From: a virus
Virus record (IMG/VR): IMGVR_UViG_3300035492_000062
Location: 32,925 to 96,924 of that record
Reading direction: 5' to 3' (one strand)
DNA: 64,000 bases
In this document: in pieces, positions 1,187 through 64,000 of the stretch
Position numbering within the stretch: position 1 is the stretch's first letter
Layout of the letters: every line of letters begins with the position of its first letter
Position numbers and translations under genes: made by a program
Notes under the pieces: generated by a model
Told to the model about the DNA's origin: nothing
The model's input: the letters and a program-made list of their open reading frames with translations, nothing else
The model's database searches: none

Positions 1187-3577
1187 ATGATGCAACTCAC
1201 TCAAACCTTAGCACCGGTAGCAACATCTGGACAATCACTACGTACATCGGAGTTCCAGATGAAAATGAACCAGAAGATGTTTGAGATTTTCTCATCATCA
1301 ATCTACTCAAACAAGATTCGTGCCGTAGTTCGTGAACTGTGCACCAACGCATTCGACATCCATAAAACAACTGGTATTGGTAATGTGCCATTTGAAGTCA
1401 GTGTGCCTACCACAGACAATCCGATGTTTGTTGTGCGTGATTTTGGTACAGGCTTATCCGAAGAACAAGTATTTGACATTTACACTGTCTACTTTGAATC
1501 TACCAAAGATGGTGATGATGAGGCTCATGGCGGCTATGGTCTAGGTTCTAAATCACCACTGGCTTATGTAGACTCATTTCAGATCCGTTCTTACCAAGAT
1601 GGTATTCTGAAGTGTTATACATGTTACCGGAAAAATGGTACACCAATGATCTCTCTGATTCTGGAAACGACCACAGACGAACCCAATGGTTTGGAAGTGT
1701 CTGTGGCTGTCAATGAGTCTGATTTTAAGCGATTTAACACCGAGATTGGATATGTTTTATCTACATTCCCAGTAAAACCAACCATCGTGAATGGTGAAGT
1801 ATCTTATTTCAACTTCAAAGAAACAGAGAAAGAATTATTCTCAATCACAAACTTCCCAAACGTAGTGGATAGAGACAACCAGTTCTTTGTTTACATTGAA
1901 CCAGTACTTTATCCTTTATTGAATGACATGAAACAGATCTTCAAGAACTCGAAGCTGTATAACATGTTTTTCCGTAATGACTCTGGTCGTTATGCATTTA
2001 AGTTCCCGATTGGTTCTATGATGATCCCACCCAGTCGTGAACAGATTGATAACACAAAATTTAACATTGATGCTTTCCAGAAATATATGGATAACATTGA
2101 TCAACTTTATTCAGTGAAACTGAATGACATTTATGAGCGCACTAAAGATCTGCCGTACTGTGATGCATTGACTACTGTCTCAAAAGAAATTGAAGGGATT
2201 ACTGGTGTTAAAAATTCTGGTCTTCTTGCAACATTCATGGAGAATAAGGATTATATCTATGCACATCCATTTGGTGACATGCAGCAGTATGATGAACGTG
2301 TAGCAATCAAAGAAGACAAAACTACTGGCATAATCGAGTACGGGATTGTTAAAAAATTCAGTCCATCAGAGAAAATTAGACTATCGCCTATTGAAAAGGT
2401 TATGTATCGCTCACTAAAATCAGGTGTACCATTATTTCAGGCACGATATTTCGATCCGAAGTCCAAAGTAAGCTTCGGGTATAATTCTGGTTGTGAAGAG
2501 TTTGTTCCTTATGTCATGGGGAAGAAGCTAGTGATCTTCACACTAGACCAGAAAAATTATCGGAAGTTCATTGAACATTTTGAAGAGCAAATGAAAAGTG
2601 ATTACCAGCAAAACCAGTTTATTTATATGCTGAATAAGACAAAAGATGAGGTGATGGATGAACTAAACGATTGGAGTTTTTCTGGAAAAGTTACTGACAT
2701 TTTTCCAAACATTGAAGTTGTTGAGTTTGCTGATATTCGTAAAAAATATCCGTTGTCACGCAACACATCTGGAATGACTGCATCTGTTAGAGGAACAAAA
2801 CCACACGCACATCTTCTATTAGATGGTGGTAGTATTGTAAACGATGAAACATCAATTAATGATTTAATCAAATTGGTTGATGAGTCTACTGATACGGTAA
2901 AGTACATTCGGAGTGATGAGGCATCTGCTACATCATACACCAACATCATCAAGGCAGTTAAACGGTCATGGGCTTTGTCAAATGTTTGTGCTGATTTGTT
3001 TGCTGAGTTTGAAGGTACACTTATTTTTACAAATCAGAAATTTGATGTCACTATCGAGAAAATGACAAAGAACGGTGTAGATATTGAGAATGTGACTGAT
3101 GTTTTCTTTGAGAAGATGAAAGAACACATCCGACAGTATTTTATGACGACTGAGAACTGGGTGTATAACAATTTATCAAATTCAGGATCAGGGAGAGAAC
3201 TCTTTGGACGCATCTCTTACAATAATAAAATCACCAGTTATTTAGGTAAAAAATATGATGTTTTATGGCACCGGAGAGTGAAAAATAAGCGAGATGAACT
3301 ATTCCCAAATGCACAAGCACCAGTAACATTCGATACCACTCATGAGTATCTGCGAATTATTAGAAATGCCGACAGCTTTAATAGTATTTTTTCTGTTCAT
3401 GAGTATAGTGAACTTTTCGAGTACCATAGTGAAGTGGAGGAATTGATTCATTATAAAATGAAAGAAATCGAGAAAAAGATCCCGCTATTGGTTGCGCTAT
3501 GCAAAAGTGTGGTATACAATAGTGATGAAACAACAGCAGATTTAATTCTGGAACACATGAAAGAAAAAGGGGTTTAA
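1187..3577 (+). CDS. rIIA: rIIA-like protein (N-terminal GHKL ATPase)
   Basis: IYSNKIRAVVRELCTNAFD, VRDFGTGLS, GGYGLGSKSP; adjacent to rIIB. Confidence 0.8.
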   Translation: MMQLTQTLAPVATSGQSLRTSEFQMKMNQKMFEIFSSSIYSNKIRAVVRELCTNAFDIHKTTGIGNVPFEVSVPTTDNPMFVVRDFGTGLSEEQVFDIYTVYFESTKDGDDEAHGGYGLGSKSPLAYVDSFQIRSYQDGILKCYTCYRKNGTPMISLILETTTDEPNGLEVSVAVNESDFKRFNTEIGYVLSTFPVKPTIVNGEVSYFNFKETEKELFSITNFPNVVDRDNQFFVYIEPVLYPLLNDMKQIFKNSKLYNMFFRNDSGRYAFKFPIGSMMIPPSREQIDNTKFNIDAFQKYMDNIDQLYSVKLNDIYERTKDLPYCDALTTVSKEIEGITGVKNSGLLATFMENKDYIYAHPFGDMQQYDERVAIKEDKTTGIIEYGIVKKFSPSEKIRLSPIEKVMYRSLKSGVPLFQARYFDPKSKVSFGYNSGCEEFVPYVMGKKLVIFTLDQKNYRKFIEHFEEQMKSDYQQNQFIYMLNKTKDEVMDELNDWSFSGKVTDIFPNIEVVEFADIRKKYPLSRNTSGMTASVRGTKPHAHLLLDGGSIVNDETSINDLIKLVDESTDTVKYIRSDEASATSYTNIIKAVKRSWALSNVCADLFAEFEGTLIFTNQKFDVTIEKMTKNGVDIENVTDVFFEKMKEHIRQYFMTTENWVYNNLSNSGSGRELFGRISYNNKITSYLGKKYDVLWHRRVKNKRDELFPNAQAPVTFDTTHEYLRIIRNADSFNSIFSVHEYSELFEYHSEVEELIHYKMKEIEKKIPLLVALCKSVVYNSDETTADLILEHMKEKGV

Positions 3578-3579
3578 AG

Positions 3580-4566
3580 ATGAGTACTAAAGTAGATCAA
3601 GCATTAAAACAGCGTATCTGGGAATTTATGCTGTCAGAAGCCAAACGTCAAAATATTGATGTTCTGGCTGTAAACAAAACAAAGACTGCCAATCAGTTTG
3701 GTGTGTCTCCTCGGACTGTTGGTCGTGTAGTAGATCAGTTCTATGGTAAAGATAACAGTGACCAAGAGTCTACAGTCACTGTAGAAGAAACACCAAAAGC
3801 AGTCACTGTAGAAGATGTAGTAAAAGTATCAGAGAAGAAATCTAAAGTCTCTGTAATCAACTGGACAATTACACAAAACAGTGTGCTGTTGACGTTATCT
3901 GATGGTAATAACGCATCAATCACCAAAGATAACACGAATTTTGGTGAAGTTTGTAAACAACTGCTTGCCGGAAATACTGATGTAATGGCACTGGTTAATC
4001 CAGCCAAAAACTTTGAGTATGAATATGGTAACATCAAAGTGGTCGAAGATGGTGTGTTATTTGCTGGTAATAAACTGCCGAAAGAGATCGCATTCTTTGT
4101 TATTGATGCAGTTCGTGCTGGTAAACAGGCAGATGTGGAACGATTCGCGAAGTTCCTGAATAATTTGTTAGAGAACCCAAGCTATCGAGCAGTACAGACT
4201 TTATATCCGTTCCTGAAACATAATGACATCCAAATCACTGATGATGGAATGATCTTGGCTTGGAAACGAATTACAGGTGATTTTAAAGACTGCTACACTA
4301 AAACCATTGATAACACTATTGGTACTGTGGTCAAGGTTCGCAGGAATGAAGTGGAAGAAGACCCAACTCGTACTTGTGCAAAGGGTCTACATTTGTGTGC
4401 TAAACATTACTTGTCTAGTTATAGAGGTGATGTTGTAGTACAATGTTTGCTGAATCCTCGTGATGTTGTGGCCGTACCACACGATTATAACGGTTCTAAA
4501 CTTCGGTGCTCAGAATACAAAGTTTTAAAAGATGTAACTGTTGAATGGGAAGCTGGTAAGTTATAA
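3580..4566 (+). CDS. rIIB: rIIB-like protein
   Basis: N-terminal HTH (FGVSPRTVGRV); NPSYRAVQTLYPFL, ITDDGMILAWK, CAKGLHLC, DVVAVPHDYNGSKLRCSEYKV. Confidence 0.85.
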   Translation: MSTKVDQALKQRIWEFMLSEAKRQNIDVLAVNKTKTANQFGVSPRTVGRVVDQFYGKDNSDQESTVTVEETPKAVTVEDVVKVSEKKSKVSVINWTITQNSVLLTLSDGNNASITKDNTNFGEVCKQLLAGNTDVMALVNPAKNFEYEYGNIKVVEDGVLFAGNKLPKEIAFFVIDAVRAGKQADVERFAKFLNNLLENPSYRAVQTLYPFLKHNDIQITDDGMILAWKRITGDFKDCYTKTIDNTIGTVVKVRRNEVEEDPTRTCAKGLHLCAKHYLSSYRGDVVVQCLLNPRDVVAVPHDYNGSKLRCSEYKVLKDVTVEWEAGKL

Positions 4567-4582
4567 ATAAACTCCCTCCTCT

Positions 4583-4613
4583 ACTCAGCCAGAATATCTC
4601 TGGCTGAGTTTTA
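4583..4613 (+). terminator. Rho-independent terminator after rIIB
   Basis: ACTCAGCCAGA-atatc-TCTGGCTGAGT then TTTT. Confidence 0.8.
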
Positions 4614-4619
4614 TAAATT
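4612..4619 (+). promoter_or_regulatory. T4-type late promoter-like motif upstream of nrdA
   Basis: TATAAATT just after the terminator; an exact TATAAATA also lies at 4562-4569. Confidence 0.4.
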
Positions 4620-4669
4620 TTCCTCAATCCCGCAATGGGAAGTTTTTCTTTTATAGGACAAAGAGAATA

Positions 4670-7600
4670 ATGATTAGTGTAGTAAAAAACAACGGAAAAA
4701 GAGAGCCATTTGATGCAGAAAAAATTAATGAGATGTGTACCTTTATCGCAGAAGGTTTAGCTGTATCCCCATCAGCAATCGCTATGAAAGCACAGATTTC
4801 TATCTTTGATGGTATTCATACTAGACAAATACAAAAAGAATTAGTTGACGCTGCACGAGATTTGGCGACAATTGATGAACCAGATTACCTAATTGCGGCA
4901 GGTCGTTTGATGATGAGTGATCTTCGTAAGCAGGTTTATGGGCAATTCGATCCTCTGCCATTATACGACATCATTTATGAGAATACTTCTCTAGGCCGTT
5001 ACGATAAAGAGGTGTTGGAGCTTTATACTAAGGAAGAGATTGATTTCTTAGACTCTCATATTGTCCATGAGCGTGATATGTTTATTCCTCAAGCAGCCGC
5101 GCTTACATACCTTGAGAAATATTTAATTAAAGATAAAATTACAGGCACTGTGTTTGAAACCCCACAGGTCGCTTTGATGATGATCCCAATGTGTCTATTG
5201 GCAAAGCGACTTGACCGTTTGAATCGGATTATTAAATTCTACGAGGCGGTTTCCACGAATAAATTTTCATTACCTAGTCCGATAATGGCAGGTGTACGTA
5301 GTCCAACAAGACAATTCAGTTCATGTTGTTTGATAGATAGTGATGATGATTTGGATGCAATTAACGCTACTGCAAACTCAATCGTCAAATACGCATCAAA
5401 ACGGGCTGGTATTGGTGTGAATGGTGGTCGTATTCGTGCACAGGGAAGTCCAGTTCGTGGCGGTGAGATATCCCACACAGGTTGCATTAACTTCTATAAG
5501 ATGTGGCAAGCAGCACTTCACAGTTGCTCTCAGGGGGGATTGCGTAACGCATCTGCGACATTATTCTATCCATGGTGGCATTATGAGGTTGAAGATTTAT
5601 TAGTGCTTAAGAATAATAAAGGAACAGAATCAAATCGGGTTCGCCATATAGACTACGGCTTCCAGATGAATAAGTTACTAATGGAACGAGTCAAAAACAA
5701 TGAAATGGTATCTTTATTTTCTCCTCATGAGAATAAAGAGTTATATGAAGCATTTTTCACCAATCAGGATAAGTTTGATGAGATTTACTATCAGATGGAA
5801 AACAACCCTCTAATACGACAAAAGCGTGTTAAGGCGTTGGACTTGTTTACATTATTTATTAACGAGAGGGCAGCAACTGGTAGAATATACGCAAACTTTG
5901 TAGATCATATGAATGACTACAGTGGGTTTGATTGTAAAAATTCTGTCATTTATATGTCAAATCTTTGTGTTGCCCCAGAAACACAAATTTTAACAGATAA
6001 TGGTTATATCCCAATTGCTGAGCTAGAAGATCAGAATGTCAGTGTATGGAACGGGGAGGAATTTACAGAGACTGTTGTTAGAAAAACTGGCTCAAATCAG
6101 AAATTACTTAAAGTAATCACCGACTCAGGCCAAGAACTCTACTGCACGCCATATCATAAGTTTTATGTGTTTGATGGATATGGCAAAGATTATGTCGAAA
6201 AAAGGGCACATGAGCTAACTTCCGGCATGAAGCTTGCAAAATTTGACTTACCTGTTTTATACAATGGGACAAAAGAGCTTCCGTTGGCATATCAGAATGG
6301 GTTTTATAGTGGGGACGGATGTGCTGTACAAAATACCCAAAGAGTTTATTTATATGGAGAAAAGAGAAAGTTGGCGCACATGTTTGATGTTAAGTGGTCG
6401 ATACAGGAAGAGCAAAACAGACAATATGGGCACTATCATGGTGAGTTAAAAGAAAAATATTTCGTGCCGATGAGTGAGTATACTCTGCGCTCCCGCATCA
6501 ACTGGTTGGCTGGTTGGTTGGATGCAGATGGTTGTGTGTATAGAAATGGAGACAATCAGCAATTAGTGGGCACATCAGTTGAGCTGTCGTTTTTGAAAGA
6601 CGTACAATTAATGTTACAAACGTTGGGTGTTTCGGCAAAAATAAAAAAAATAGCAGAGGAAGGATACAGGAAACTACCACTTAACAACGGCACTGGGGAG
6701 TATGGTGATTTCTGGTGCCAAACATCATATAGACTGATCATAACAAGTAACGATGTTTATCGACTATTATGCAATGGACTGAAACTTCATAGATTACAAT
6801 TAGAAAAGCGTCTACCTCAGAGAGATGCAAGACGGTTTGTTGTGGTGGAGAGTGTAGTTGATAACGGAAGAGTTGACGATACATTCTGCTTTACTGAATC
6901 AAAGCGCGGCATGGCGATGTTTAACGGCATCTTGACTGGTCAATGTTTAGAAATAGGACTTCCAACTTCACCAATTTTTAACATTCACTCTCCCGCTGAG
7001 GATGAGGACGGTGAGATTGCACTTTGTACATTAGCCGCATACAATTTAGGTGCAGTTGAACCAGAAGAGTTTGAAGAGATTGCTTACATCATAGTGGAGG
7101 CATTAGATGAGCTATTAGACTATCAAGACTATCCGGTAAATGCAGCTAAACATGCACTGAAACGCAGATCGTTAGGAATTGGAGTTACAAATTATCAATA
7201 CTGGTTGGCTAAGAATGGTTTTAAATATAGTACCCGTGATGGAAACAACGCTACCCATGAGTTGTTTGAACGACTGCGTTATAGTTTAATGAAAGCATCA
7301 GTAGAGTTAGCTAAAGAAAAAGGTCAATGTGAGTGGTTCTATAAAACCAAACTAGCAAAAGGGATCATGCCAGTTGATAACTATAAAAAAGACGTTGACG
7401 CTTTACACACAGCTGAACTGAAAATGGATTGGACATCACTCCGGCAAGACATTTTGAAGTATGGTATGCGAAATAGTACACTGATGGCTCTTATGCCAAG
7501 TGAAACAAGTGCAATTATTGCTAACGCCACTAATGGCATTGAACCACAGCGAGGACCAATTGCAATTAAAGCTGGTAAAGATGGCAATATGAAGATTATT

Positions 7601-30162: not shown

Positions 30163-30187
30163 GAAAAGGAGCATTAAGCTCCTTTTC
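30163..30187. terminator. Bidirectional terminator at a convergent junction
   Basis: GAAAAGGAGC-attaa-GCTCCTTTTC, overlapping the last codons of the 2H gene. Confidence 0.75.
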
Positions 30188-30689
30188 TCTTTTTCCAATC
30201 CAAATCTAACTCTTGGTGATACTCCCCGATGAATCTCAGATACGCAGGCAGCACCCCTTTAGTTAAATTTATTTTCTCTGGATTTGGTACATCATACGCC
30301 AATGTAACATGAGGTTTATATGGATTATATGTGTGTCTCAGTCCGTAGAATGTCCCAATTTCTAAGTGTCTAGCCTTCAACTCAGGACAATCAAAAGCCA
30401 ATACAAGTGTTTTCTTATCTTCTCCAAACCAGTCCAACTTAGCACTTGTACCAATCTCACTCTTGATTGATTTCATTTCTGGAACGAATGGAAATCTTGG
30501 CTGATCAAAGCTGTACATCATTGTGATATGGAGATCTTCTTCTTTCACAGAATTCTGTCCCAGTCCCAATTCTTTTTGTAAAATCATGATCAATTGTCTT
30601 GAGACAGAATCTAACTTTCTTCCAACATACGTACCAGCACTACCACTAACAGAAATAGATAGACTCTCGTAAATTTCATCAAAACGCAT
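30174..30689 (-). CDS. 2H phosphoesterase, T4 gp57B/Acb1 (anti-CBASS)-like
   Basis: Two HxT motifs (LHITMMYS, PHVTLAY), LVLAFDCPELKARH; shared N-terminal leader MRFDEIYESL. Confidence 0.8.
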   Translation of the reverse strand: MRFDEIYESLSISVSGSAGTYVGRKLDSVSRQLIMILQKELGLGQNSVKEEDLHITMMYSFDQPRFPFVPEMKSIKSEIGTSAKLDWFGEDKKTLVLAFDCPELKARHLEIGTFYGLRHTYNPYKPHVTLAYDVPNPEKINLTKGVLPAYLRFIGEYHQELDLDWKKRKGA

Positions 30690-46297: not shown

Positions 46298-46885
46298 TTA
46301 ATCCCCATCTGGTTCTGAGAATTCATTGAGAATTTTATGGTACACGTATGATGCGAAATCGTCAATACCATAATCATCATTATCAAGTAGTCGTATTGTC
46401 ATGTCTGGATGACAAGTAACCCATCCGCGAGAGTCATTAGACCAGTTACTCCCAAAACGGGACCATTGTAGAATGAGTACATTACTTCCACCAAACTCGT
46501 TTATAACTGCAATGGTTTCTTCATCAAACCCACCGTCAGTCACCAAGAAAAACTTATCAGTGATTCCGGTTTTTTTGATATTGTCGCACAGTGCTTTTCC
46601 AAAATAATCTTTTCCGTGTACTGGTTTTACCCATTCCTCAGAAATCTTAATCAGGTACTGGCGTTGGGATAATCCACCTAACTTATCCCATGGTTCTTCT
46701 TTCATAGAAGACTCATATCGTTCATCCCATTCTTGCTTAGGTATCATAGATACACATAAAGCTATCTCAATCAACTTCTCCTTGAAAGAAGCAATCTCGA
46801 CAGGCAATCCAACGTCTTTGAGATAGGACGCAACAGCGTCCTTTCCAGAGCGTTTTGGACAGTTGAAAATAATAATCTTAGGCAT
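46298..46885 (-). CDS. dNMP kinase (T4 gp1-like)
   Basis: FNCPKRSGKD, SFKEKL, RQYLIKISE, VTDGGF.EE. Confidence 0.75.
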   Translation of the reverse strand: MPKIIIFNCPKRSGKDAVASYLKDVGLPVEIASFKEKLIEIALCVSMIPKQEWDERYESSMKEEPWDKLGGLSQRQYLIKISEEWVKPVHGKDYFGKALCDNIKKTGITDKFFLVTDGGFDEETIAVINEFGGSNVLILQWSRFGSNWSNDSRGWVTCHPDMTIRLLDNDDYGIDDFASYVYHKILNEFSEPDGD

Positions 46886-48533
46886 ACTCTCTTCTCCATT
46901 TTCCATTTTTCATTGTAACCATTGTGCGTTTGAAGTTTTTATAGGTAATAATATGACTGTGACTCCATGAGGATGGCGATCCATCATTATACCCAAGTCG
47001 AAGTTTACTACATGTACCTGCCTGAAACACTCCATCATCAATACAAGCACTATGGCTATGGTTCAGGTTAACACGAGTGCCAATGTGTTTAAAACCTTTT
47101 GCAGAGCCTCTAGCGCCATTTGGACCTAAATGTCCATGATACCCACACTCGATATTACCAATAGTAAAACTTTCACCCTCGGACAAGAACTGTACGTCTT
47201 TTCTTGAAATGTCTGGTTGTAATAACTCCAACACATACTTGAACAGATGGAAGTCTTTATCTTGCCGTTCAATCGCTTTGTAAGTAGCAAGCTGACATTC
47301 TAGGAAGAATACGGCATTTGCTGGATCGTGTTTATAATCGGCAGTTTTTATCCACTTCATCAAAGCTAAGTCATGGTTTGCTTCCACTACCACAATTTTT
47401 GAGAATGGTCTTGACATCATGTTAAGAAAGTCTGCAACAAACTTGATCGAATCTCTGACAGAATCATCCTGTTTAATAAACTGGCTGAATCTGAAGTGTG
47501 GATCGTTAATGTTGTGATGATTCCTGACTTTAAAATCAGCAGTATCAGAAGCAAACTGAATTTTAGGTCTCAGGACATCCAACATATTATTTTTGTTTGC
47601 ATACATGATTGATTTTGATGGATAATCATACTTCAAGCCAAAAGCATTCAATGCTACGACCGGATCAACTACTTCTAAATGCAGGTCTCCCCAGTTGATC
47701 GCTGCAACATTATCTGTTGCTTTTGCATATCCGTGTGGCGCATAGAAGTAATCTAGGTCATAAAATGTTCCGTCTTCCTCAGAAGCGTTGATCTGTCTGA
47801 CAAATGAATCACCGTCTTCATCTACCTCAACAATCAATGCACCAAAAATGTGATGGTATGCTGCTTTCTGACCTGCTTTCTGCTCGATATAGTTCAATCT
47901 AGTTACTGCACCAGATGTGTACAAATGTCGTGCACCTGATGATATTGGTGCTGCAAGTGGCTTCATGCGCTGCTTAGTGTGTGGGATGATACCAGAGCGA
48001 TTCCCGCAATAACTCTCGAACCCAGATTCTGGACAGCCTGCGGTGGGTAGAATATTCATCTCACCACAGAAGATCAAATCATCCGCTAAAAGCAAACGCT
48101 CGTTGCAAATGTAGGGTTTAATCTTCGGATCGTACCAAATATCTTTACCCCCCTCACCGTTCTGAAACCCATTTTTGTTATAAATGAATGTAGAGATCAA
48201 TAGCTCAGCACCTCTATGTTCACATAACCTCAGTAATGAATCGAAGAACTGCTTATGGATTGCAGTATTATTCTGAGCAGATGTGATGACAAATGTTTTA
48301 TTCTTGCCATACAGTCTGGTGGATGGTTCATAAGGTTTTTTATGACCAGCACTAAACGTTGGTTTTTCGTCATACACTAACCAGAAATCTTTATAAGAAC
48401 GCCTCATATAGAAATCACGGATGGTTGTGTCTGGAATGCCCAACTCTGCTGAGATCTTGCGGAATGCATACTTCTCTACATCCCGCAAGCGAATTATTTC
48501 ATGCATATCGTGGTCGTTTAAAACTCTCTTCAC
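46878..48533 (-). CDS. HTH plus metallophosphoesterase-like protein
   Basis: N-terminal HTH (FRKISAELGIPDTTIRD); GDLH, NHH, ANHD, HGHLG, HSHS. Confidence 0.65.
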   Translation of the reverse strand: MKRVLNDHDMHEIIRLRDVEKYAFRKISAELGIPDTTIRDFYMRRSYKDFWLVYDEKPTFSAGHKKPYEPSTRLYGKNKTFVITSAQNNTAIHKQFFDSLLRLCEHRGAELLISTFIYNKNGFQNGEGGKDIWYDPKIKPYICNERLLLADDLIFCGEMNILPTAGCPESGFESYCGNRSGIIPHTKQRMKPLAAPISSGARHLYTSGAVTRLNYIEQKAGQKAAYHHIFGALIVEVDEDGDSFVRQINASEEDGTFYDLDYFYAPHGYAKATDNVAAINWGDLHLEVVDPVVALNAFGLKYDYPSKSIMYANKNNMLDVLRPKIQFASDTADFKVRNHHNINDPHFRFSQFIKQDDSVRDSIKFVADFLNMMSRPFSKIVVVEANHDLALMKWIKTADYKHDPANAVFFLECQLATYKAIERQDKDFHLFKYVLELLQPDISRKDVQFLSEGESFTIGNIECGYHGHLGPNGARGSAKGFKHIGTRVNLNHSHSACIDDGVFQAGTCSKLRLGYNDGSPSSWSHSHIITYKNFKRTMVTMKNGKWRREYA

Positions 48534-60824: not shown

Positions 60825-60850
60825 AAAAAGGGGACTAATATCCCCTCTTA
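60825..60850. terminator. Bidirectional terminator
   Basis: AGGGGA-ctaata-TCCCCT between convergent genes. Confidence 0.6.
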
Positions 60851-61495
60851 TCTTTGATACAGCTTCATTGTGTTTTCAGTAAACCCAAGATCAATAATTA
60901 CAGGCTTGCCTTTGTATAGTCCCCAGTTGGCCTGACGCCCAAGATCGCCGATACCGATTTGAGTGTAGTTCAACAACAAATCTCTCAACTTGTCATAGTT
61001 CTCGTTTTCATGTACAGATTCAGGCAGTTCTTTGTATCTCCAATTTTTCCTACCAGTTCTCTCATACTCAATAGACGCCATAATAGTATCTATGTCAACA
61101 CCACCAAAGAATCGCTCCAGTTGCTTCTTGGTTATCTTATCGGCATACTCCGTGTGTATCCATACTGGTCTGGAGTTCTGCTCGTCATAATCAATCATAG
61201 GAATCGTAATCCCTATCCCCGTTACATACCAATCTGATAATAAGTCAGCTTCTTCTTGGTTTTGACTTAGACCCTTACCCTGCGAAAGTGCCACCTTGAT
61301 TATTGTCCTACGCCCTTGATATGGTACTTCAAATGCAACACGAGACGATCCTTTGCCCACTTGCTGTGCTCTTGCCTTAGCGTATTCAATCATTTGTTTG
61401 TACGTACCCTGTCTACCTGAGAACATAGATTGATCCCAGTCTGGTGGAAGTGGTGCTTCTTGAATGAGCGTCCTGTATAAATTATCTAATTTCAT
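60848..61495 (-). CDS. Protein-kinase-fold enzyme with the shared N-terminal leader
   Basis: Gly loop VGKGSSRVAF, IIKVA, QNQEE, catalytic DLGRQANWG, DLG; starts MKLDNLYRTL. Confidence 0.7.
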   Translation of the reverse strand: MKLDNLYRTLIQEAPLPPDWDQSMFSGRQGTYKQMIEYAKARAQQVGKGSSRVAFEVPYQGRRTIIKVALSQGKGLSQNQEEADLLSDWYVTGIGITIPMIDYDEQNSRPVWIHTEYADKITKKQLERFFGGVDIDTIMASIEYERTGRKNWRYKELPESVHENENYDKLRDLLLNYTQIGIGDLGRQANWGLYKGKPVIIDLGFTENTMKLYQR

Positions 61496-61935
61496 CTCAA
61501 AATCCCGTATGTAATATTTCCAGCTTCTTCAATCTTAATAGAGTCGTAACCCATGGCTTTTAGGAGAGTGGCAGTTTCTCTTTTATTATTTTCTGACTCC
61601 CAGAACGTTATGATTGGTCTGGACTCTTCACCAAAATATTCTCTGAACCTATTTAGATAAGGAATGACATCTTTAGACTTGTTCTTAGCATTTCTGCTCA
61701 CAACTGCAATGAACCTACTAGCATTGAGTCTCAATCTGTCGTGGCCTAAATCGGCTGTATGTTTTGGATTGAACTCTAACTCAACCATACGACCACCAGC
61801 AACACCACCTCTTGACATTGCGTACTGTGCTGCTATGTTTTTACTAGGTGTAACCCATCTAATCGTTCTTGAGTTACTACCAGCACCTACTCCGCGATAG
61901 ACTAGAGACTCATACAAACTATCAATATTCATCAT
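61492..61935 (-). CDS. ADP-ribosyltransferase-fold protein with the shared leader
   Basis: VYRG...WVTPSKNIAAQYA...GRMVEL...GYDSIKIEE; starts MNIDSLYESL. Confidence 0.55.
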   Translation of the reverse strand: MMNIDSLYESLVYRGVGAGSNSRTIRWVTPSKNIAAQYAMSRGGVAGGRMVELEFNPKHTADLGHDRLRLNASRFIAVVSRNAKNKSKDVIPYLNRFREYFGEESRPIITFWESENNKRETATLLKAMGYDSIKIEEAGNITYGILR

Positions 61936-62414
61936 TAAACCTCTATCACAATTGCCATATAATACGGAAGACCTAGCTGAAACACCACATCAGCACGAGT
62001 GTTACCAGAGAAGATCCTCATTCTGCTACCTTGTTTAAGGATGATAGGCATCTCCATTGGTTTATTCTTAGCAAACCAATCATACAAAGCATCAACCGTT
62101 TTCTCGTTTCTGTACATAGGCCACGACTGATAAGTTTTGAGTGCATTGATCAACTGTTCCTTAGATGCTGACACACCAGACCGATACGAGACTTGATTGT
62201 CTATTGCTCTGGTTATTTTTACTCTAGGTGCCATATTAGCAGCAATGATAAAATCCTGAGCAGTAGGGAATGGATTGCCATACATACGTCCAAGACCCTT
62301 TAACTCATACTAGACTTTGTATTCACGAGCCAATACATCATTCTTTGGCATCACCCAGTTATTAAATGATGCATTCTCTAACAGTAAACTTTCGTACAAT
62401 TGATCTAATTTCAT
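61935..62414 (-). pseudogene. ParB/Srx-like protein with the shared leader, interrupted by an in-frame TAG at codon 35
   Basis: MKLDQLYESLLLE...EYKV*YELKGLGR in frame with MYGNPF...MPIIL...IFSGNTR. Confidence 0.65.
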
Positions 62415-62920
62415 AATTTGCTCACTTCTCTTGCAGCCACAATCTTTACATTTCTTGGATCAAAAACAACCAACGAGTAGTCGAACATGTCCATGAACAT
62501 GTAACTATCATATCCAGATCCAACATAGGTTTCTGTTTTTACACTACCGTCTAAATCATTCTTCAATCTATTCAACTCACGCAAATCAGGAATTAATGCA
62601 TTTTCAATCCAATCTGGTTTGTAAACTGTATGTTTAATCAATGCATTTTTATAAGACCTCTCAAGCTCGCTTGTTATTTTTGTCTTCTTATCAAGAAATG
62701 TTTTTCTTACTTTTGGCTGAACCTTATAAACGTATCCATCTCTACCAGCATATTGTTTAGCTAATTCTAAATTTTTTGTAAGATAAATTCCAGATGGGTT
62801 ACTGCCTCTATTCAGACGTGCAGCATTTAGATCAAATTTAGTAAACAGACGAGGACTCCCGTGATACCAAACATCACGGTCACTTCCCAGTAAACTCTCG
62901 TACAACTGATCTATCTTCAT
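62411..62920 (-). CDS. ADP-ribosyltransferase-fold protein with the shared leader
   Basis: WYHGS...GIYLTKNLELAKQYA...GYVYKV...GYDS...LVVFDPRNVKI; starts MKIDQLYESL. Confidence 0.65.
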   Translation of the reverse strand: MKIDQLYESLLGSDRDVWYHGSPRLFTKFDLNAARLNRGSNPSGIYLTKNLELAKQYAGRDGYVYKVQPKVRKTFLDKKTKITSELERSYKNALIKHTVYKPDWIENALIPDLRELNRLKNDLDGSVKTETYVGSGYDSYMFMDMFDYSLVVFDPRNVKIVAAREVSKL

Positions 62921-63811
62921 CTAATCCCCCACTTCTGCTCTAACATAGGAATAGCATCCTTCCAGTTTGTTACATTATACTTACGCAGCATTTTACTCAC
63001 TTCAAACATCATATTTCTGTGGTCTGGGGAATTTTGTGACATGTGAAGATCCGCACCTATGCCACTCAGATTCTTGTATCTAAGTTTCGTAAGAAACTCG
63101 TTAAGTTGCTTCTCCATACCAGATGACAATTTGTGTCTATCCTCTGGCGAGAATTTCAGTGCAGCAAACAGACCAATCAGCCCCTCAGTGTATCCTTCTG
63201 GGGTAGGACGTCTAATGTTCCTATAGTATCCTGCTGGCTTAGACACATCAGGTTCATTGATGATAGATTCTAGATCAACTTCATTTTGTTGAGCAACCAT
63301 ATCTCTTGGAGTTCTAAAAACTCTAAATGGAATATTTCTGGTCTTGCAGAAGAGAAGATGGCTAATTTTCTGATGTTCCTTGGGTCTTTTAAATCATCAA
63401 CCAAATCAATACCCAGAATGAACTTAGTAATGTCTTTGATGGTGTCATGATTGCTGAAAATTCTGTCTTCTTCCTCATACGCACCATTACTAAATCCTCG
63501 GTAATCTGCTCCCCAGTAGTCAACCGCAGTACCCTTTAGGTTATAAGCAAGTGCACGTCCATCTAACTTGATTAAAGCACTATGGTGTCTGTCTTGATGG
63601 TACTTTCCTGTGCGTGTACGAGCCGTAGACAAGAAATACATCGTAGGTGTTGGCATTGATGCTTCTGATGGTTTGGCGAACACTGGAGCCAATCTAAGCT
63701 CATTCTTAGACAGTATGTTCATCAACATTGGAGTTTGTGTGGAGTGGAGTGGTATACTATGGGGGAGATCCCCTCTGTCAACAAACTCTCATATAAAAAT
63801 TCAATCTTCAT
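62917..63811 (-). pseudogene. ART-fold protein with the shared leader, broken by two -1 frameshifts
   Basis: MKIEFLYESLLTEGISPIVYHST, shift, MNILSKNELRL...FLSTAR...KLDGR...VDYW...EEEDRI, shift near 63390, KISHLLFCKTRNIPFRVF... Confidence 0.6.
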
Positions 63812-63820
63812 CTCATTCCC

Positions 63821-64000
63821 TTACATTACAAACATTGACAATTTTTTGACGAGATTCATCAGTGTTACAAAATCTACATTGTATAGTTTAGCAATCGTTC
63901 TCACTTGACTCTCAGAATTTACAATCACAGTACTAAACCCAGCTTTACCAGCTAAGTTGATCAAGGCCAGCATTGGGCGCTTATACTTCTCTGGGACGTT
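63821..64000 (-). CDS. 3' end of a hypothetical gene entering from beyond the window
   Basis: Open frame NVPEKYKRPMLALINLAG...KLSMFVM*. Confidence 0.55.
   Translation of the reverse strand, partial: NVPEKYKRPMLALINLAGKAGFSTVIVNSESQVRTIAKLYNVDFVTLMNLVKKLSMFVM

Follow-up and report, generated by a model that had tools for sequence, protein, structure and literature searches.

The viral contig IMGVR_UViG_3300035492_000062 carries eight genes whose products begin with a common 13-residue N-terminal tag of the pattern M-[KNR]-[ILF]-[DE]-x-[LI]-Y-x-x-[LI], and we consider it likely that this leader is the version of the phage T4 capsid targeting sequence (CTS) used by this phage lineage, by which enzymes would be loaded into the capsid for injection together with the DNA. 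The contig is a linear sequence of 99,445 bp from a tar-pit metagenome and about 63% complete. The window analyzed here is a stretch of 64,000 nt that corresponds to bases 32925-96924 of the contig, and coordinates refer to this window unless they are marked as contig coordinates. Five of the tagged genes are translationally coupled on the minus strand at 60848-63811, and another one at 30174-30689 encodes Acb1, an enzyme directed against the cyclic oligonucleotide-based antiphage signaling system (CBASS). The nearest cultured relatives are the Alishewanella phages Slickus01 and Slicko01 (141 kb; host Alishewanella sp. SMS8), with about 61-65% identity to Slickus01 in the compared tagged proteins and in an A1-like protein. 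A near-identity DNA search of the phage collection gave no match.

A shared leader at the start codons of eight genes

All six N-termini that a sequence-only reading of the window had listed are present at the minus-strand starts 63811, 62920, 62414, 61932, 61495 and 30689 (Table 1; the last one reads MRFDEIYESLSIS and begins MRFDEIYESL), and at 61935 an extra in-frame ATG precedes the 61932 start, which gives MM. The set is larger than these six, however, as two further minus-strand members lie past the right end of the window. The seventh (MKFEQIYNEIIEE, 268 aa) reaches into the window with its 3' end at 63821-64000 and starts 627 nt beyond it, and the eighth (MNIDQLYTTLTES, 150 aa) starts 10 nt after the stop codon of the TerL gene.

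In the genome-wide motif scan that the same reading had proposed, an in-frame leader was found only at the start codons of the leader genes. A loose regular expression, applied to all six frames of the whole contig, matched solely at the six places mentioned above, all of which are start codons, and with a weight matrix that was derived solely from Slickus01 leaders, the seven best-scoring positions in the six frames were all leader genes, each at an ATG start. The Acb1 leader is below the listing cut-off of 8 of that matrix, and its support is the regular expression. A degenerate back-translated leader pattern had no match in IMG/VR, the pattern being too strict across codon variants. Leader-like N-termini were also seen in the head-module protein orf118 (MKNDILDTIILE before A) and in the scaffold (MMKDDLKAIFES), but these are below the matrix threshold and were not used as evidence. 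As a side observation, two small late proteins with leader-like N-termini are encoded outside the window at contig positions 8536-8892 and 16099-16515 on the plus strand; one is the Gly/Ala-rich head-module protein just mentioned, and the other has an extremely acidic tail (MSHKELLEVLIKE before S) and lies behind a strict T4 late-promoter octamer (TATAAATA).

The claim that the proteins are unrelated beyond the leader was borne out, as no pairwise BLASTP similarity was detectable past residue 13, except between the 268-aa protein and the product of the 63811 gene, which are paralogs. At the nucleotide level, the leader codons have a mean identity of 59% among each other, and the conserved residues are encoded by synonymous codons (Leu by CTC, CTA, TTA and TTG, Ser by AGT and TCT, Tyr by TAC and TAT, Glu by GAA and GAG), and selection therefore acts on the peptide and not on an RNA or DNA element. 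The recognizable Pfam domains begin past the leader, at residue 17 in case of the ART-PolyVal ADP-ribosyltransferase (ART) and at residue 19 in case of Acb1, and in AlphaFold2 (AF2) models the leader is a detached helix of low confidence.

A T4-type head and a cut motif between leader and cargo

Pfam searches identified on the contig a Peptidase_S77, which is the gp21-type prohead protease (PF03420, 78.8 bits), a T4-type scaffold (T4_CASP; PF25623, 31.5 bits), and a gp23-type major capsid protein (PF07068, 236.9 bits). Replication genes of the T4 kind and the A1-like protein are encoded as well, and judged by its gene content the phage is T4-like with the full T4-type head-assembly set of S77 protease, gp22-type scaffold and gp23 capsid protein. 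The S77 protease is also found in Slickus01. T4 gp21 is known to cut after Glu in the motif I/L-x-E (PMC12991175), and the propeptide of the capsid protein contains LLE17, LNE21, VLE32 and VVE51. A hydrophobic-x-Glu motif is present within the first 13 residues of all eight leaders: the three leaders that have no Glu at position 12 or 13 contain L/I-Y-E8, and the four leaders without E8 have a Glu at 12 or 13.

The junction between leader and cargo is best seen in the family of the kinase-fold protein that is encoded by the last gene of the cluster, where a cut can be predicted after I-Q-E13, directly before APLPPDWD. The best 120 of 232 kinase homologs, which come from many uncultured phages, were inspected, and 113 had a recognizable junction. 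Their leaders vary in sequence and length (8-50 residues, median 10), but the residue before the conserved [AST]-P-L-P-x-D-W-D, i.e. P1, is Glu in 113 of 113 cases, P3 is Leu or Ile in 110, and in 105 an Ala, Thr or Ser follows at P1'. Some leaders of the family are almost identical to the T4-group tag, such as MKTFKQFLKE before TPLP, which compares with MKTFKEF of IpI and Ip5 of phage RB7. When the S77 protease was modeled together with the first 40 residues of the kinase-fold protein, the predicted complex had a score of 0.00, which weighs neither for nor against a cleavage.

Leaders in related phages

In Slickus01, ten genes have this leader, one of them beside the terminase and nine in a consecutive row a few genes further, and these nine begin with MKI[DE]xLYESLLEE or a close variant thereof. 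As Slickus01 bears the same tag, the address tag proposed from the sequence alone has to be called lineage-specific rather than phage-specific. In several related contigs, the leader of the kinase homolog matches that of unrelated neighbors on the same contig (MRAxEFIxE in L010, MKYxDFLxE in L014, MKVKDIxxE in L008, and in L012 an Acb1 homolog with MKLKNIIEDLFEE). Unrelated neighbors in one phage thus tend to share that phage's own leader, as far as these sequences tell. The S77 protease was found in three of five related fragments, each of which is 22-49% complete. The virion proteomics paper on XacN1 does not contain the kinase homolog ORF170 in its text, but this study was based on gel bands and is hence uninformative in this respect.

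Three Slickus01 proteins (L001 1367-1819 on the minus strand, 2120-3124 and 4413-4934 on the plus strand) share a second, different N-terminus, M-x-x-x-x-K-K ... V-T-N-K-D-R-x-A-P-F-F-F. On the contig studied here, this second N-terminus is present in a stub open reading frame (ORF) of 26 codons, outside the window at about contig positions 98000-98080 on the minus strand, where it separates the 150-aa leader gene from the gene that comes next.

Acb1 and its N-terminal extensions

The protein encoded at 30174-30689 can be assigned with confidence, by its sequence, as the Acb1 anti-CBASS 2H phosphodiesterase. It matches PF23474 with 100.5 bits (cut-off 27), and residue 2 of the solved Acb1 structure 7t26 aligns to residue 19 of this protein, with both HxT motifs being kept. 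Word-based homolog searches for Acb1 and for the 268-aa ART yielded only a handful of close relatives, and an exhaustive search was then used for Acb1. Our survey of Acb1 N-termini comprised 155 sequences, namely the best 150 of the exhaustive search of cluster representatives and five close homologs that the word-based search had found. The leader type described here is retained in the four closest relatives and also in the closest cluster representative. An extension of 6-30 residues with hydrophobic-x-Glu is present in 106 of the 155, 22 have an extension without this motif, 14 have no extension, and the rest are longer fusions.

The Acb1 proteins of the T4 group (gene 57B; L016 1501-1959, L017 1483-1938) start with MEFKDFST before the domain and have no cut motif, and their genes adjoin Ip5 and IpI, whose products start with MKTFKEF. 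The MEFKDFST sequence may be a vestigial targeting peptide without cut site.

Genomic context and probable late promoters

The leader cluster spans the region from TerL to an intrinsic terminator, and the Acb1 gene directly follows genes for a tail sheath-stabilizer and a tail-tube-like protein. This latter arrangement mirrors the T4 order 3-1-57A-57B-Ip5-ipI, as seen in RB7. While the strict octamer TATAAATA is found upstream of the scaffold and capsid genes and a few other genes, the relaxed motif NNTAAATA (TAAATA-type) is located 17-43 nt upstream of many structural genes (17-40 nt for many head and tail genes), and 24 of the 66 TAAATA sites of the contig are at most 70 nt upstream of an ORF start. 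Within the window, examples of NNTAAATA precede 30689, 32683, 32742, 41056 and 59803. This motif is probably the late promoter of the phage, as far as its distribution indicates. It also precedes leader genes, with a distance of 43 nt to Acb1 (where it reads CATAAATA), of 28 nt to the true start codon of the 268-aa gene, and of 18 nt to the 150-aa gene, and a late expression of the leader genes appears likely from these positions.

The tagged cargo proteins

According to the sequence-only reading, the six proteins comprised three ART folds, a kinase fold, a ParB/Srx-like protein and a 2H phosphoesterase. The ART-PolyVal, the 2H enzyme Acb1 and the kinase are well supported, whereas the assignments of the other two ARTs and of the ParB/Srx-like protein have weaker evidence. 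The cargo structure predictions that had been suggested as a check reflect this gradation, being strong for the kinase and weaker for the 268-aa ART and the ParB_N-like protein.

Table 1. Positions of the leader genes and of the terminator in the 64,000-nt window.
Feature	Leader	Position	Strand	Basis and remarks
Acb1 anti-CBASS 2H phosphodiesterase	MRFDEIYESLSISVSGSA, then domain	30174..30689	-	171 aa; Pfam PF23474
Intrinsic terminator closing the leader cluster		60826..60849	-	10-bp stem, then T run, directly past the kinase stop codon
Minimal protein-kinase-fold enzyme	MKLDNLYRTLIQE	60848..61495	-	215 aa; AF2, Foldseek and invariant residues
146-aa protein	MNIDSLYESLVYR	61492..61932	-	Atlas feature search
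ParB_N-like gene with in-frame TAG	MKLDQLYESLLLE	61935..62414	-	159 codons, read with X at TAG; Atlas
ART-PolyVal ADP-ribosyltransferase	MKIDQLYESLLGS	62411..62920	-	169 aa; Pfam PF18760
DarT/Tpt1-like ART-family gene with two frameshifts	MKIEFLYESLLTE	62917..63811	-	tblastn
3' end of the seventh leader gene (product 268 aa), which is an unbroken paralog of the 63811 gene	MKFEQIYNEIIEE	63821..64000	-	coordinates, family motifs and fold
150-aa leader gene	MNIDQLYTTLTES	beyond window, directly after TerL	-	coordinates

The protein encoded at 60848-61495 is well supported as a minimal protein kinase fold by structure modeling. The AF2 model has a predicted local distance difference test (pLDDT) score of 93, its top Foldseek matches are Bud32/PRPK, ArkI and CK2, and more than 120 kinase structures were matched at E<=1e-3. 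In addition, G47, G49, K67, E82, D184, N190 and D202 are invariant in the family (71 homologs), so that the Gly-rich loop, ATP-binding Lys, helix-C Glu, catalytic Asp/Asn and metal-binding D-x-G of a bilobal kinase fold are all represented. The protein of 62411-62920 is firmly placed, on grounds of sequence, in the ART-PolyVal family, as PF18760 is matched with 38.4 bits (cut-off 31.2) and as the Slickus01 ortholog, which bears the same leader, is 61% identical.

The remaining proteins are assigned with more caution. The 146-aa protein is probably an ART-PolyVal/AcrIF11-like ADP-ribosyltransferase, a lead from language-model features: the Atlas feature search gave a score of 0.94 with 189 shared features, and the ten best named matches are all ART-PolyVal/AcrIF11, but as there is no match in Pfam or PHROG, the call stays at the level of a lead. 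In case of the 268-aa protein, the AF2 model has a pLDDT of 76, and the top Foldseek matches are all of the ART fold (DarT, Tpt1/KptA, pierisin, pertussis S1; E 4e-3 to 0.2). The family keeps H21, STSRTR and YEQEDR, and we regard a DarT-like ART fold of this protein and of the related 63811 gene product as a weak lead from modeling. The 62414 gene product is another lead; its structure and feature matches in Atlas point to ParB_N clusters (template modeling scores of 0.56-0.78), but the model is poor (pLDDT 0.46), and there is no match in Pfam. The 150-aa protein had no informative match and is left unassigned.

Two observations concern genes without the leader. The A1-like protein is encoded among replication genes (46878-48533, minus strand, 551 aa) and belongs to the family of the T5 A1 'DNA transfer protein', of which there are more than 1100 phage records of many kinds. 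The portal gene (contig 4505-7453, plus strand, outside the window; 982 aa) contains an HNH-endonuclease-like insert at about residues 436-526 that may be an intein or an insertion.

Two broken genes

The sequence-only reading had proposed that one leader gene is interrupted by a frameshift and another by an amber codon. Both kinds of defects are real, but the 63811 gene has two frameshifts instead of one, near 63755-63743 and 63360-63357, as was seen when its three frames were mapped by tblastn, for which the intact ortholog of Slickus01 (300 aa) and the paralog of 268 aa served as queries. The amber codon of the 62414 gene is a TAG at 62312-62310, where the intact Slickus01 ortholog has a Glu codon. 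Assembly errors can be ruled out, because contigs from a second run of the tar-pit metagenome (X2) show no difference at the amber codon and at both frameshift sites. A suppressor tRNA or recoding was also considered for the in-frame TAG and can be ruled out, since the only tRNAs on the contig are Met, Arg and Met, and TAG is the stop codon of 17 other genes on the contig. Taken together, these are real lesions, and the 62414 and 63811 genes are probably pseudogenes.

Proposed mechanism and alternative explanations

How could such a leader function? According to our proposal, the tagged proteins would be made late in infection, and the short amphipathic N-terminal helix M-K-I-D-x-L-Y-E-S-L-L-x-E would attach them to the scaffold core while the prohead is being assembled. 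The tag would then be removed by the S77 (gp21-type) protease after hydrophobic-x-Glu, at L-Y-E8 and/or at L-x-E12/13, and the mature enzymes would remain in the head until they reach the next host along with the DNA. This cargo would comprise two to three ADP-ribosyltransferases, the minimal protein kinase, the ParB_N-like protein, the 150-aa protein and the anti-CBASS nuclease Acb1, and on arrival these could act on host targets and break down immune signals ahead of any phage gene expression, the former by modification. A loading of host-modifying or anti-defence enzymes into the head had been suggested from the sequence alone, and this reading, with the leader as a T4-type targeting sequence and propeptide for the prohead protease, is supported by the T4 head set, the hydrophobic-x-Glu leaders, the kinase junction, the within-phage sharing of leaders and the late-gene context.

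Several points weigh against this interpretation. The leader has little identity to the T4 tag (MKTYQEFIAE or MKTFKEF), with only M-K and the aromatic residue at position 7 in common; T4-like tags do occur on homologous cargo of other phages. About a third of the contig ORFs (44 of 139) have hydrophobic-x-Glu in their first 13 residues by chance, the L-x-E in front of APLP may belong to the conserved kinase domain instead of being a cut site, and the matrix of leader identities within versus between phages is only modestly discriminating. There is no strict TATAAATA upstream of the leader cluster. Two of the eight tagged genes are broken, and this particular phage thus does not need them. Finally, in T4 the degradation of cyclic nucleotides by Acb1 begins only about 15 min into infection (PMC9117128). 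Acb1 is thus able to act late in the cytoplasm without having been injected, and this is the principal reason for caution about injection.

In an alternative to which we give a small chance, the leader would serve as a pro-peptide that a protease can remove, or as a late localisation tag, without any delivery. It would keep toxic ARTs and the kinase inactive or bring Acb1 to the site and time of prohead protease action, so that the proteins act in the producing cell. Besides the timing of T4 Acb1, this would agree with a late triggering of CBASS by the gp21 protease activity (PMC12991175), with the late context of the leader genes, and with the extensions of so many Acb1 representatives. However, such a use of a pro-peptide has no precedent, the same kind of tag and cut motif suffices for encapsidation in T4, and ART-PolyVal and ParB-type domains otherwise occur in proteins that are predicted to be delivered by virions (PMC5512222). 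Capsid targeting is the reading that we prefer.

It is less probable still that the leader is a recognition tag for another shared partner, such as a modifying enzyme, a chaperone, or an export or assembly factor other than the head core, as there is no candidate partner enzyme in or beside either locus (where TerL, PhoH and tail genes are the neighbors), what remains invariant coincides exactly with the gp21 cut motif, and the tag-bearing lineages carry the S77 protease. The shared N-terminus could also be functionless as a peptide, and either be left over from the recombination of cassettes at a common 5' end or serve in translation initiation. Recombination is frequent at hyperplastic loci of T4-like phages, and the genes are translationally coupled in one operon, which would be in line with this idea, but the low nucleotide identity of the leader codons with their free synonymous variation, including AGT/TCT for serine, the conservation of the tag in Slickus01 at the given protein divergence, and the Acb1 copy at a distance of 30 kb in another operon make it very improbable.

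Comparison with known systems

If the leader indeed targets proteins to the capsid, the closest known system is that of the T4 internal proteins IPI, IPII and IPIII and other T-even Ips (Mullaney & Black 1996, reviewed in PMC9026906, PMC3012670). The T4 CTS is a 10-residue N-terminal propeptide that is the only conserved part of diverse internal proteins, is removed by gp21, and is sufficient to package foreign proteins (PMC9026906, PMC3012670). Both systems have an N-terminal tag of about 10-13 residues on otherwise unrelated proteins that ends with L/I-x-E for a gp21-type protease, both occur in phages with a gp21/gp22/gp23-type head, and in both the genes are beside late genes and next to Acb1. 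Also, the aromatic residue at position 7 corresponds to a position that is important in T4. An Asp at P1 prevents the processing of the T4 tag, whereas targeting is retained. The systems differ in the tag itself (MKIDxLYESLLxE here, MKTFKEF... in RB7 IpI and Ip5), in the presence of two alternative Glu sites (E8 and E12/13), and in the cargo, which would consist here of predicted enzymes of 15-30 kDa, whereas that of T4 consists of small basic proteins. The sequence data support a view of the leader as a lineage-specific variant of the T4 mechanism, which was already described in the 1990s.

Enzymes as head cargo have a counterpart in T4 Alt, a protein of 70 kDa. Alt is an ART with propeptides that are removed by gp21, and it is packaged and delivered with the DNA (PMC5512222, PMC9026906), as predicted here for ARTs with a leader that a gp21-type protease could remove. 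Alt belongs to the R-S-E clade (PMC5512222), whereas the ARTs described here are small ART-PolyVal (HYD-type) and DarT/Tpt1-like proteins with H/STS/ExE-type motifs. The same types of effector domains, i.e. the ART of polyvalent proteins and the DdrB-like ParB, occur in the polyvalent proteins of phages and conjugative elements, for whose effector domains a transfer together with the DNA is predicted (Iyer et al. 2017, PMC5512222), but there many domains are fused in one giant protein, whereas here they are 'unbundled' into separate small tagged proteins. The ejection proteins of the giant phages phiKZ, 201phi2-1 and SPN3US have long N-terminal propeptides that were mapped by mass spectrometry (PMC5694885). 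These are likewise head proteins that are cut after Glu by a gp21-related protease, and their paralogs share conserved N-termini; the propeptides differ in being mostly longer than 100 residues and in having an A/S-x-E motif.

Implications for T4-like phages

As a broader possibility, which we put forward with reservation, many T4-like phages might deliver ready-made enzymes against signaling immunity in their capsids, with Acb1 as a common capsid cargo, the minimal kinase as a widespread injected kinase, and polyvalent effector domains as exchangeable, singly tagged proteins. For Acb1, this idea is based on the high proportion of representatives with a short hydrophobic-x-Glu extension, and for the kinase on the L/I-x-E type of junction, whose Glu was present in every homolog with a recognizable junction. 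Compared with the T4 precedent, the present case adds cargo that can be recognized as enzymes, two families (Acb1 and the kinase) that are probably common among capsid cargo, and a relative in culture for testing, since in the Alishewanella phages Slickus01 and Slicko01 ten genes have this tag.

Should the tag function as it does in T4, one could read from the sequence what this phage group injects with its DNA, including ADP-ribosyltransferases, a protein kinase and Acb1. The tag could then be used to load foreign proteins into the capsids of non-coli T4-like phages, and an unannotated kinase family with more than 230 metagenomic homologs would have a role. For the phages themselves, it would mean that a part of the counter-defence is moved to time zero of infection.

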